Assembly (NCBI GenBank): GCA_964016885.1
Contig: OZ024753.1
Location: forward strand, 434,001-498,000
Length of the DNA: 64,000 bases
Source: Eledone cirrhosa
Taxonomy: Eukaryota
Direction: 5' to 3'
Every line of letters starts with the position of its first letter. Position 1 is the first letter of the stretch. The notes under the pieces are model-generated. The model worked only from the letters and a program-made list of their open reading frames with translations. It made no database searches and was not told the origin of the DNA. The translations under genes were made by a program, and so were the position numbers. Shown one piece after another: positions 13,471 to 62,058 of this stretch.

Positions 13471-13589
13471 ATAACGAAGGAATTGTGGTAAGGATCCAGA
13501 TGGACCATAACGCACCAAAGTACTCAATACTTAGAAATAGCCGTCGAAACGGCTTGAGCTCTGCCGTCGGGGTCATAGTTGTTCCTATA
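13471..13589. mobile_element. Family B Penelope-like pLTR fragment with inversion
   Basis: Reverse-complement 3' tail joined to a forward AGCCGTCGAAACGGC...GCCGTCGGGGTC; flanked by (TA)n. Confidence 0.65.
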
Positions 13590-14068
13590 TATATATATTC
13601 AAAATAGGGGGCGCACAAACCAAATACTATGGAAAAGACAACTGAAAGATGGACAGTCCCATCTCCTCAGTCAACCTCTGGAAATCACTACGGTGATTTC
13701 GGTACATTCAGATTGATACCAATCATTCCAGTGCACACTGGGTCATAACAAAACAGGTAGAGACAATTTATATAGAGTACGCAAGGGCTTTGCCAAAGGA
13801 GAACAAATACATAGAAAGGAGAGAAATAGTAAAATACAAGAGAATAATAAGGACAGTAGTCCAACGTGCAGAGAAGGACACCGAGATGTAGAAAAGGTAA
13901 AACTTGCTGACAGAATGATAAAGAGTTAACATGGCAACACATGCTAACAAACTGTGACAAGCATGATAACCTTATTTCATCGAAACTATATCTACATCAA
14001 GTAAAGGTTTGTGAAACACGAGAAAATTATGTATATACAAGGACGTTCTATTCTTAATATATCATATA

Positions 14069-14480
14069 AGGGCGGTGGATTGGCAGTATCGGTAGAGCGT
14101 CGGACACCCTGCTTCGCAGCATAGAGTTACGGTCATTTACGTTCCGAATTCAAATCCCACCGAGGTTAGCTTTGCCTTTCATCCTTACGGGGTCGATAAA
14201 ATAAAGTACCAGTAACGCACTGGGGTCGATTTAATCGACTTTCCCCTTCCCCCAAAATTGTTGGCCTAAATGAGAAACCATGATATCATAAGGGTGGTGG
14301 ATTGGCAGTATCGGTAGAGCGTCGGACACCCTGCTTCGCGGCATAGAGTTACGTTCTGAGTTCAAATCCCGCCGAGGTTAGCTTTGCCTTTCATCCATAT
14401 GAGGTTCGATAAAATAAAGTACCAGTAATGCACTGAGGTAATTGCTGGCCTTGTGCCAAAAGTAGAAACAATTATATCAT
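14069..14480 (+). mobile_element. Tandem pair of the major tRNA-derived SINE (many further copies, e.g. 8541-8649, 9027-9203, 24961-25152, 32900-33120, 36955-37075, 40675-40776, 50075-50252, 53034-53136, 60200-60345)
   Basis: A-box-like TGGCAGTATCGGTAGAGCG, B-box GTTCAAATCC, conserved body GCCTTTCATCCTTACGGGGTCGATAAAATAAAGTACCAG, tail GCCTTGTGCCAAAAGTAGAAACA(ATT)n. Confidence 0.85.
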
Positions 14481-14784
14481 ATAATCCAAGCGCGGTGGAA
14501 GCATTTCTAAATTGAGTGTGTGTGAGGGGGGGGGGGGTCAATTTAGTTGTAGTGATTAGTTTAGTTGTTATCAAATATCAACCAGGATATAAAACACTCC
14601 GATATGCGATAAACATAACATGTACATAAATTGTAGCGTGTATACAAATAGATGCGTGTTTTGGTAGTTTGGGGAGAAAAATATAATTATGGGATAAGCC
14701 ATGCCCCCCACCACTCCAGTCCCATCACCCATGTAATCTACACACGTATAACTTAACCATACTGCGGATAATACAGTGAAATCT

Positions 14785-15360
14785 ACCACTCCTTTTCTTC
14801 TTCTTCTTGTATGACATATACACAGTAACTAGAGAAGCAGGTCGAGACCGGCGAGCTAGACCAAGGTGTCATTTGCAGCATTATGGATTGCTTCCAGACC
14901 GCCGGGAAAACGTCTGAGGGGCCAATCCCGAACAACATGCAGTACTGTCTGGTCAGCCCACACTCTAATGCTATGCTATCTTTCATTTTCCATTGATGGA
15001 GATGATGTGCTGTCTTTGCATGTGTTGTGCAGATCCGATTAAGGACACACATTGCTTCATGGGAAGTTCAAAGCCGGCAAGTTTAGATGTGGGGTCCTGG
15101 ACGAGGTCTTGGTTGGCAAATTTAGACTCATTTCGTGATTTCGCCACTCTTCCTTCAGATCCAAGTTATTATTCTGAAGAGTCTTGATTGATTCCCAGAA
15201 TGGTTTGCGTGATTTCAAGCGCATGTTGGCAAGGTTTTGCAGGTCTTTATCTACCACCCTAGTCACACGTTTCATGTATATCCTGCCTGAGAATTGCGTT
15301 AAGGAAATAAGTACCTGCCAAACATCCGTTAAACTCATCGTCGAAAGATGCAGATCCATT
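14785..15360 (-). mobile_element. LINE 3' fragment (RTE-like)
   Basis: Degenerate ORF with Cys-containing C-terminal remnants and a short (GAA)n-like end. Confidence 0.5.
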
Positions 15361-16005
15361 TGCTCTTTAATTTTTTTTTTTTACTATATATATGTATACA
15401 AATAGAAAAACACAAAAACGAGGGTACCAGATAAATCCATCTTTCGTAAAGGGAGGCGTTATTTACAAGTATTAAAGGAGGTATTATGTACAAGTGTTAA
15501 GGGAAGCGTTATGTACAAGTATTATTTAATATTAACAGCCGATAAAATAAAGTACCAGTAATACACTGAATAATTGCTGGCCTTGTGCCAAAAGTAGAAA
15601 CAATTATTTAATATTAACAGCTGTCTAAAATTTCTCAGGTTTTTCCTAAGACGCAACATTTATCTGTGTGAACAACCGACAAGTAGCGAGGGTACGTGTT
15701 TTATTTATCAAATATGAGGTCTTATTGATATTTATGTGTGTGTGTGTGTGTTTGTGTATATATGTGTGTGAGTGTGTGTGTGTTTGTGCGTGTGTGTGCG
15801 TGCGTGCGTGTTTGTGTTTGTGTGTATGTCTATGTTTGTGTTTGTGTGTGTGTGAGTCTGCATGTGTTTGTGTGTGTGTGTGTGTGTATATATATGTGTG
15901 TGTGTGAGTGTGTGTGTGTATGCTAATGTTAGTGTGTCGGTATTCACTAAGGACAGGCATATTGTCAGTATGTCTAATTAAAGCATGAAAGTAGGATAGG
16001 CATTC

Positions 16006-16195
16006 ATGAAGGACGCCATTTATTGTAACATGTTCTCGGGTACCTATCACATCGTTTCTACCATAAATCCAATTGCTGCCGTCCGGAAAGCAGAAGGGCG
16101 GAAGATTGACAAATATCGAACATTAACGGAACAATTCGATGAAGTATTTCACAACAAAGCTTTCGTCATCTTGTCCGCGGGGCGTACCTGAGATA
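16006..16195 (+). mobile_element. Restriction-like endonuclease remnant of a CRE-type non-LTR retrotransposon
   Basis: AAVRKAEGRKIDKYRTL matches the AE..K..KY motif of RLE domains. Confidence 0.5.
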
Positions 16196-16199
16196 TTGA

Positions 16200-59593: not shown

Positions 59594-60020
59594 CTGAAAA
59601 TATAAAGAAATAAAGTAAGTATTGAATTATTTGAAATTTTTTTTTTTTATATAAGCCAAGCTATATACTATATGTGTATATAATCACATATTACACTTTG
59701 TAATAATTTAATGGTTTTTTGGAAGGAAGCAATGAACTGACAATTCAGTTTCCATCTTCATTCATATGAAATCTCAACACCTCTTGTTAAATTTATACAT
59801 ACACTATAAATAGAAACCTATAAATTACTTTATAATCAGTGTTTAACACCAAACTCATTCACTTGTATGAATACATTGACATTATAAGTATTTAGAAGAC
59901 ACTATAAGCATCGTAATACTTAGCCCAAAACCTTAACCACTCAAAATAGTAAATATAAATTAAATATCACACAATTTTTTAACAAATGTTTGTAAAAAAG
60001 AATATAAATGGAATCTTTAC

Positions 60021-60091
60021 CTTCTGCATGCTGGTCAATTTAGGTGGCATTTTACCACGGTTGCTGTTATCAATACATACATAGTAGGCAG
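60021..60091 (-). CDS. BTBD8: BTBD8-like internal exon
   Basis: ttcatacag acceptor, GTAAAG donor, phase 1/0. (S)AYYVCIDNSNRGKMPPKLTSMQK continues the frame. Confidence 0.75.
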
Positions 60092-60780
60092 CTGTATGAA
60101 AGAAACAATTCAGTTATTTTACAAAGATCAAGTTTTTTTTAGTTATAGATGTATTGTGTATCACATACAAAAGAGAGAACAGCAGATTTCTTACAGAGAG
60201 AGGAAGAATTGACACCAGTACTAGACTGGTACTTTTTTATCAACCTCGAAAAGATGAAAGGCAAAATTGACCTCGGTGGGATTTGAACTGAGAGAGTAGA
60301 GAGCCAGAACGAATACCATAAAGCATTCTATCGACTCTGCCAATATATATATATATATATATATGTAAGTTTCTTTATGCTCTAAAAGAATTGAGAATTT
60401 TGTAACACTAAATATTTTCATCATTTGTTGAAACAATCATTTAAAGACAGTGAAATATTGCTTAGTTTACAACTACAGCCTATTTAGTGCAAAGCATATG
60501 AATTGTATTCACAAACTATAATAATATGCTATATGTAGGTTGGTTATCAGAAGTATTTTTGAGTTATGTTCCAAACATCTGTTTGATAATGAGAAAGTTT
60601 TATTACTAAATTCTTTCAAACTAATTATTTTCAAAATTAATTACAAATCATAAGGTAAAGTCTTGCATTAGTAATATAATGAGAAGATTAAATTTAGGTT
60701 TTTGAAAAAGGTGTCTTGCTTTCAGAAGATACTTGTATAAATTGGTTTATAATTCAAAACATTCTACAGTTATGAACAGA

Positions 60781-61202
60781 TTAACCCTTTAGCATTTACA
60801 TTATATATACTATTGTATATTCGCAGTAAAGGCTTTACTTCACATAAATATCTCACAATATTGAATCTATGAATGAAATTTTGATATCATTTATTTGGAG
60901 AACAATACCTTAATGTTGGATGAGCAGGCGGTTACGGCTGGTTTGAACAGAAAGAGCTGAGAGAATTCTGGTTGGATACAGCTGGCTTAAATGCTACAGG
61001 GTTAAACCAGCCATATCCAGCCAGAATTTTCTCACCTCTTTCTGTTCAAGCTGGCCATAATTGGCAGCTTATGCCGATGTTTAGGTATTGTTCTCAAAAT
61101 AAATAATATCAAAATCTCATAGATTCGATATTATGTGAGGTAAAGCCTTTACCGCGAATATACAATAGTATATATAGGGTAATGTAAATGCTAAAGGGTT
61201 AA
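60781..61202. mobile_element. Inverted dimer of the TTAA MITE
   Basis: 60781-61005 and 61002-61202 are opposite-orientation copies joined at one TTAA. Confidence 0.85.
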
Positions 61203-61220
61203 AAAAGACAAATAACTCAC

Positions 61221-61350
61221 ATGTCATGATTTTCTTTTGCATGTCATCTGTAAGTAAATCCCAGTCTTTACAGTGAGCTACCTGGTGAATATGTAGCTTT
61301 AAGTAATCTTCACTCTTCTTAAATAATGACTGGATAAACGTGATAAAATC
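61221..61350 (-). CDS. BTBD8: BTBD8-like internal exon
   Basis: ttttcag acceptor, GTGAG donor, phase 0/1, open frame DFITFIQSLFKKSEDYLKLHIHQVAHCKDWDLLTDDMQKKIMT (cf. recalled BTBD8 ...AVRHTESWKLMSTDDQQKI). Confidence 0.78.
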
Positions 61351-61871
61351 CTGAAAAGAGTTTTAAAAAAAGTGGTTAAAAGACAATTTCTAAAACTAAA
61401 TAATAGGCTGTTAATAATAATAGTCCAAAGTATACTAAGTCTAAGTCTAAAGTCTGTCTTAAGCCATTTAAGGTGCATTAGGCTGGTACTTATGCCAGTT
61501 TCTTGGTGATACATCTAAACTAACCAAATGTTCATATATTTCTGCTATAAGAAAAACACAGACATTTTATTTTTCTGGATTATTTTTCAATTCATTAACT
61601 TCACTACTCTACAGAGAGTAAATGTTAAGATTATTGGAATTTTATTACATGAAATAATATTCCATCTAAAACAAAAAAACGTGAAACAACAAAATGATTT
61701 GAAATCAGAAATAATGAATACTGAATTACAGAGTATTGAATTTATACATTTACTTTCATCATTCACAAATCAAAGTTTTGAGAAAATCACAGATTCATTC
61801 ATTGTGTCTTAATGGTGTGTGGGTGTGTGTGTGTGTGTGTGAGAGTGTGAGTGTGTGTGTGTATATATATA

Positions 61872-62058
61872 TAGGAAAAGGTATGACCCCGACGGCAGAG
61901 CTCAAGCCGTTTCGACGGCTATTTTTGAGTCCAGAAATAGCCATCGAAACGGCTTGAGCTCTGCCGTCGGGGTCATACATTTTCCTATTACCCACTCTAC
62001 TACCCTAAGTATTGAGTACTCTGGTGCGTCTGGTTCCTTACCACAATTCCTTCATTAT
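61872..62058 (+). mobile_element. Family B pLTR fragment with 5' fold-back inversion
   Basis: TAGGAAAA..GACCCCGACGGC..TTTCGACGGCTATTTTTG-AGTC-CAGAAATAGCCATCGAAACGGC..GGGGTC..TTTTCCTA; lies in (TA)n. Confidence 0.72.

Follow-up and report, generated by a model that had tools for sequence, protein, structure and literature searches.

Inverted, truncated copies of a hammerhead-bearing, likely Penelope-like element in Eledone cirrhosa: termini, junctions and possible two-sided priming

Known hammerhead-bearing elements and the Eledone family

Penelope-like elements are typically arranged as inverted copies that are 5' truncated and carry a tail on one side (PMC8557442; PMC3846280), and how their inverted ends originate has been described as an open question (PMC8557442, section 15). 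Inverted ends and opposite-strand pairs of hammerhead ribozymes are already published, as are a ribozyme core with a U3-A8 pair, documented for Penelope-like elements of Schistosoma (PMC4209133), and a self-priming proposal for head-to-head Penelope palindromes (PMC3846280). In the anole element Poseidon PAc, the tail lies between two internal sites of reverse-transcription initiation, and both target strands are cut and extended (PMC11167929). In a literature search that left most subscription papers outside, we found no publication tying Penelope inversions to twin priming or to a transcript start inside a hammerhead. Here, we describe a hammerhead-bearing, likely Penelope-like family in a stretch of 64,000 nucleotides (nt) from Eledone cirrhosa (contig OZ024753.1, positions 434,001 to 498,000; referred to below as the window), in which inverted copies share two fixed 3' ends and a narrow 5' edge. 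This combination, in a family that appears to be very abundant, allows junctions within one genome to separate self-priming from two-sided priming.

The window has 36% GC, is rich in microsatellites, and holds six copies of the family, five close ones and one distant relative (Table 1). A preliminary description of this DNA had recognized several copies of a second hammerhead family with Penelope-like anatomy, and both observations hold. Element coordinates throughout are those of the copy at 24.6 kb (24482-24818), the reference for subfamily A. Copies outside the window were sampled through reads and contigs of four out of 22 sequencing runs (X1, X4, X6, and X20) placed on the element, leaving aside runs with a small share of matches and a wastewater run; 15 of 18 joints are listed, 12 of them between opposite strands, and the loose ends are likewise a listed subset (477 further rows). 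Two exact-pattern scans of metagenome contigs for the family returned no matches, and four matches of a family 20-mer to bacterial genome contigs were taken as chance.

By analogy, the family likely represents a Penelope-like terminal repeat with its tail. Like the solo or inverted pseudo-LTR (pLTR) copies of EN+ Penelope-like elements (PMC8557442, Fig. 2 legend; PMC3846280), it has 5'-truncated copies, a head-to-head pair, a one-end tail, AT-rich or (TA)n targets, and a type I hammerhead. Unlike in those elements, the tail measures 80 nt instead of 30-40, no open reading frame (ORF) was seen, and most copies appear to stop at an edge in loop II of the ribozyme. Two fixed ends downstream of the hammerhead with the tail between them, and a cleavage product that is not the main template, are shared with PAc of Anolis carolinensis (PMC11167929); PAc has its ORF from stem II and initiates without homology, whereas both ends here carry TAT matching the target. 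Non-LTR retrozymes (10.64898/2026.07.22.740005) are likewise short, non-coding, and Penelope-related with a type I hammerhead, but most copies here are without the core, and the six window copies include no head-to-tail arrays of complete hammerheads. A link to octopus Naiads was not borne out: in the supplement covering Naiad, Chlamys, and Hydra (PMC8557442), window motifs gave only three short matches, to other families, although line breaks in that file could hide matches.

Fixed termini, a narrow 5' edge and differing junctions

Four of the five close copies are inverted and 5' truncated with the tail at one end. Site B (24818) terminates all five, and site A (24738) terminates three of four short arms exactly, the fourth stopping at 24736. 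Nine of the ten ends of these copies abut (TA)n, and the remaining end lies on (GA)n next to (TA)n. Beyond the window, site A is followed by TA repeats in 3568 reads, 98 X1 contigs, and 3 X4 contigs, and likewise in 1375 reads and 99 contigs of a third subfamily. This third subfamily, seen at 24688 and 24726-24732 and absent from the window, shares site A with the others but departs from them at the 3' end of the loop and around stem III. Coding potential of the tail was rejected: it is an open frame without ATG, and by eye its variants did not seem synonymous.

The inner ends fall in a narrow zone at the 3' end of loop II. All seven window arms that carry the 3' half of the ribozyme in inverted copies begin at 24675-24684, and four of five window insertions start within 9 nt, as tight as only 39 of 50000 simulations (null interval 24484-24720). 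One side lies in 24678-24691 for 10 of the 12 listed opposite-strand joints (3 of 50000 simulations; null interval 24640-24720), and six of the seven listed joints from X1 contigs fall in the zone (67 of 50000). Summed contig depth, which is not copy number, rises 37- to 49-fold across the zone in X1 and 8-fold in X4. Since most of the listed loose ends upstream of 24685 and 24688 show poor agreement (0.34 and 0.48; one row 0.73), many copies seem to stop at the edge without inversion. We dropped the X20 depth, and the 7270 X20 ends at 24685, as breakpoint evidence; four of six listed end rows lie on AATT sites, which we take to be restriction cuts. Hammerhead cleavage was also ruled out as the source of the 5' edge, as there is no depth step at 24719, where a single contig joint is located.

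The four window junctions and the 12 listed joints are all different. Subfamilies A and B differ at 5-9 sites (24685-24738), and each includes both long and truncated forms: 24.6 kb and 51782 in A, X6 record 18 and 61872 in B. Within the same interval, the arms of the 51782 pair show 0/54 differences to each other and to the 24.6-kb copy, and those of the 61871 pair differ at 2/54 positions; the arms of the 51031 pair differ at 8/51, making it an older pair. These three had been described as inverted pairs, and they are. The 13471 copy, said to break at stem II as well, does not form a palindrome, as there is no overlap between its arms (24683-24738 and 24755-24818). The divergent copy at 29946-30078 is indeed related (alignment score 48, against a maximum of 40 among 2000 shuffles), with a stem III that differs from the close copies; its inverted part amounts to only about 10 nt beside (GA)n, with no full-length relative to compare.

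Joints outside the window are asymmetric in 12 of 12 listed opposite-strand cases. In these and in 13471, the short arm extends to the edge, and the long arm joined to it starts at 24715-24777, close to site A. The partner ends cluster there (mean distance 14.8 nt versus 28.2, p 0.001; distinct values, p 0.02). Three of the 12 side lengths (61, 55, and 48) match the whole stretch to 24738; another three match that to 24726, the point at which the third subfamily ceases to align. Inverted, non-overlapping fragments with a short deletion or duplication, the shape expected of twin priming, describe 13471 and most of the 12 joints, not the three palindromes; any target-site duplication would be masked by the microsatellite flanks. 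Twin and dual priming have been defined for L1 (PMC2837659), and as in L1, 13471 and the joints consist of two inverted fragments with an internal deletion, and two RNAs would give overlapping arms. Unlike in L1, the copies here have no poly(A), the second priming would take place at a fixed site, and both arms are bounded by a fixed 5' edge.

Possible routes to the inverted copies

The likeliest explanation, to which we give about an even chance of being correct, is that these short copies arise by two-sided target priming at sites A and B, synthesis up to the shared 5' edge, and head-to-head joining. Each strand of a cut TA repeat would serve as primer for a cDNA, with synthesis beginning at site B from one strand and at site A from the other, and the two cDNAs would then be joined. 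The termini, the edge, the junctions, and the subfamilies are observed; target priming, the partner enzyme, the start site, and the joining step are inferred. Loss of the catalytic core on insertion, correctly noted in the preliminary description, would be a by-product. If a single RNA served both, synthesis from site B would end close to site A and yield a copy of the 13471 type (twin priming); with two RNAs, or with displacement, both cDNAs would reach the edge and yield palindromes (dual priming). The rarer long copies would derive from RNA that includes the whole downstream repeat.

Several observations weigh against this scheme. As to the presumed partner enzyme, 0 of 99 window frames (from 100 listed) match reverse transcriptase or GIY-YIG. 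Three of the four inverted window copies are symmetric, but none of the listed joints is, which shows a bias in the read set, and later deletions could mimic the asymmetric pattern. The X20 depth is distorted by restriction cuts, and the repeated values 24732 (4 of 12 joints) and 24688 may be alignment edges of divergent subfamilies. Finally, both arms belong to the same subfamily in 3/3 palindromes, as fold-back also predicts, and site A, being the first TAT beyond the turn, could be used by a fold-back strand.

The last two points favor a second route, which we consider unlikely, in which the site-B cDNA reaches the 5' edge, snaps back on a micro-homology of 2-3 nt, copies to site A, and is captured by the target, with later deletions producing the asymmetric copies. 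The identical arms of 51782, the short A/T overlaps at subfamily-B junctions, and the published self-priming proposal are also in keeping with it. On the other hand, 3' ends at 24675-88 are predicted to be unpaired (pairing probability, P, at most 0.08), and the junction of 51782 carries a templated insert and lacks a self-complementary end. Moreover, 13471 and the 12 joints retain the whole short arm and lose the long arm near site A, in which case the fold-back arm would lack its template.

Under two-sided priming, the edge is likely the 5' end of the RNA, with transcription starting inside the ribozyme at A24678; such a short template would be without the core and unable to self-cleave. A start at A24678 has about even odds. 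Among 40 positions scanned, A24678 is the only 7/7 match to the initiator (YYANWYY), using consensus sequences from a table in PMC4581360. Nearby downstream elements match at 4/5 and 5/6 positions, and the combined initiator, TATA-like, and downstream pattern occurs at 10 of 127840 positions. Penelope promoters are known to sit in the terminal repeat and to need a tandem arrangement (PMC2377424).

Other considerations speak against a start at this site. The thresholds were chosen after seeing it, the initiator alone matches 1.15% of positions, and the 10 pattern matches may include sister copies. In the window copy, the TATA-like octamer at -31 matches at just 5/8 positions; in 12 X1 contigs, a variant of it matches at 7/8. 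The start in Drosophila virilis lies some 120 nt 5' of helix I (PMC2377424 with PMC4209133), the ORF of the anole element begins at stem II (PMC11167929), and the literature surveyed contained no precedent for a start inside loop II. The bases around A24678 also resemble a 3' splice site.

A more specific version, which we regard as possible and decidedly tentative, is a Penelope-like element with a promoter built into the hammerhead, the TATA-like sequence lying in the stem II 5' arm and the initiator in loop II. A two-headed enzyme would prime both target strands at two fixed sites on the RNA and run off this start, and the strong-stop-like cDNAs of 60 and 140 nt, produced in large numbers, would be joined head-to-head. 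If so, the transcript would start with half a ribozyme, inverted Penelope ends would be explained by twin or dual priming, and the reaction would have left its record in thousands of genomic junctions.

Two-sided priming could also operate on a longer RNA, with the edge reflecting a reverse-transcription block or an RNA processing site (the hammerhead fold, a bound protein, or the splice-acceptor-like AG at 24678-79); this seems quite improbable to us. The edge does lie inside the ribozyme, its ends cover 14 nt, the AG follows a run of pyrimidines, and D. virilis has an intron that extends to helix I (PMC4209133). However, a plain hairpin would stall synthesis at the stem base, 24695, yet the cDNAs cross the whole stem II 3' arm and end about 7 nt into the loop, a position that fits a template end better than a hairpin block. 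The hammerhead fold is also not the favored one (predicted -17.6 versus -26.9 kcal/mol), and the listed loose ends have no common upstream exon.

Amplification of a few short master elements, either a palindrome resembling a miniature inverted-repeat transposable element (MITE) or a truncated master resembling a short interspersed element (SINE), would make the shared ends a matter of descent. Fixed outer termini, TA flanks, very high copy number, and the similarity of the 51031 and 61872 junctions are in its favor. We nonetheless find it very unlikely. The outer ends of inverted copies are not inverted repeats of each other and the junctions differ, so that the terminal inverted repeats and fixed internal structure of a MITE are lacking; long and truncated forms coexist in both subfamilies. 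Descent from a single master palindrome in particular is unlikely, with different junctions in 4/4 inverted window copies and arms in two subfamilies. Fixed ends do not by themselves imply a MITE, because the anole tail also lies between two fixed initiation sites and the outer ends here are not inverted repeats.

Least probable of all is the route originally proposed, in which the cDNA crosses both stem II arms, folds on stem II, and primes the second strand: the form it predicts occurs in 0/7 window arms and 0/12 listed joints. A cDNA ending at 24643-44 is indeed predicted to self-prime (last base paired with P of 0.98 and 0.74, calculated on the window subfamily-A sequence only), and the distant 29946 copy, with a short hairpin and a few further inverted bases, could fit a short fold-back; the observed ends at 24675-24688 have the low pairing values given above. 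One listed joint ends at 24642, yet its partner is 24760. A cDNA ending at 24689 has a last-base pairing P of 0.69 through another hairpin, and its product was not seen. The CGGCTA at the turn, read earlier as the native stem II hairpin, extends both ways as the reverse complement of the 3' arm region and is thus an inverted copy. The 39-nt native loop, which fold-back would retain, is missing from 3/3 palindromes, which have spacers of 25, 16, and 14 nt built of loop 3'-end sequence. Nor can a short subfamily-B loop rescue stem II fold-back, because X6 record 18, a contig with subfamily-B variants that spans 24629-24754 with one gap, keeps the long loop. The anticipated sharp, non-random cluster of breakpoints next to stem II was found, at positions other than fold-back on stem II requires. 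As a general cause of inverted Penelope ends, fold-back is further contradicted by Naiad, which inverts without canonical hammerheads (PMC8557442), and by the other hammerhead family of the window, which keeps both cores.

The hammerhead motif and other features of the window

The copy at 24.6 kb is, as previously described, the only one with the 5' strand of stem I and the core, and it has a type I hammerhead layout, with three stems around the core, GAAA, and an NUH site; pair probabilities are only 0.01-0.31. The core, reported as CTGA, reads CTGAGAA, not the canonical CUGANGA, and could alternatively be one without N7. In the standard hammerhead numbering, C3 then faces A8, forming neither C3-G8 nor U3-A8. 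Elsewhere, a T at 24633 is found in 77/461 X20 reads, in 91146 of 173738 X1 depth (52%), in 57.4 of 81.5 X4 depth (70%), and in both X6 contigs, which gives those copies a U3-A8 pair. An Rfam search found no hammerhead match in the whole window or in 24600-24760. A 6-bp hairpin at 24689-24704, which covers GAAA and parts of stem III and of the 3' side of stem II, is a competitor of the hammerhead fold and a possible switch. The stem III covariation reported earlier was not confirmed; it comes from one distant copy.

The U3-A8 hammerheads of Schistosoma Cercyon (PMC4209133) resemble this family in the U3-A8 reading of the T-variant copies, the long helix II, the 5-bp helix I, and the opposite-strand pairs. 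Unlike in Cercyon, the seven-base core here has no extra base before G10.1, helix III is closed with 4 bp and a 9-nt loop, loop II is long, and the window copy has C3 opposite A8. The family also suggests a reason for the predominance of half motifs among genomic hammerhead copies here, and for its being missed by standard CUGANGA searches.

Table 1. Copies and sequence features of the family in the window
Feature	Position	Strand	Details
Longest, non-inverted copy	24482..24818	+	between (TA)n runs; subfamily A
Type I hammerhead-like motif	24628..24723	+	stem I 24628-32/24719-23; core 24633-39
Hammerhead motif, continued	stem II 24640-51/24684-95, long loop; GAAA 24696-99; stem III 24700-03/24713-16	+	predicted cleavage after C24718
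Core-promoter-like arrangement around A24678, putative	24647..24710	+	initiator 7/7; TATA-like 5/8 at -31; partial downstream elements
Zone of 5' ends, truncated and inverted arms	24675..24691	+	3' end of loop II; upstream edge near A24678
Site A, fixed 3' end of short arms	24732..24738	+	ends in TAT on (TA)n
Tail, 80 nt	24739..24818	+	one arm only; ends at site B, TAT on (TA)n; 5/5 insertions
Inverted copy, arms non-overlapping	13471..13588	mixed	long arm 24755-24818 minus, short arm 24683-24738 plus; 2-nt shared junction; subfamily B
Palindromic pair	51031..51229	+	short arm to 24684, long arm from 24678; subfamily B; left flank (GA)n after (TA)n
Palindromic pair	51782..51989	-	long arm from 24676, short arm from 24679; 4-nt templated insert; subfamily A
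Palindromic pair	61871..62058	+	long arm from 24675-78, short arm to 24682-85; subfamily B
Distant relative	29946..30078	-	hammerhead 3' half and tail of similar length; ~10-nt inverted piece at 5' end

Additional hammerheads are present in the window. A second family, of minimal hammerheads with a canonical core and palindromic helix III, occurs at 798-1222, 21739-21806, 24158-24338, and 62519-62660, with cores at 902-, 1118+, 21798-, 24169+, and 62527+ (signs give the strand); 798-1222 is an inverted pair with the core kept in both arms. At 18133 and 39444 there are two more type I hammerhead motifs, minimal and unrelated, in which helix III is also palindromic. At 62398-62491, just upstream of the 62527 copy, there is a tangled palindrome with 35-nt arms on the 3' half of a family-1 hammerhead.

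Exons of a KLF10-like gene with C2H2 fingers are located at 40333-43660, and the exon at 40962-41726 shows 58% identity to Octopus sinensis KLF10 and 39% to that of Argonauta, in keeping with an octopod host. A 210-codon, exon-like open frame at 58997-59626 (-) has no Pfam match. An abundant short repeat with internal duplications and a SINE-like look occupies 14146-14480, 24961-25151, 32898-33133, 42715-43288, 50063-50254, 56241-56599, and other sites. Finally, a 220-nt repeat is present as two inverted copies at 60781-61206, with more copies at 40084, 42378, 58239, and 63551.

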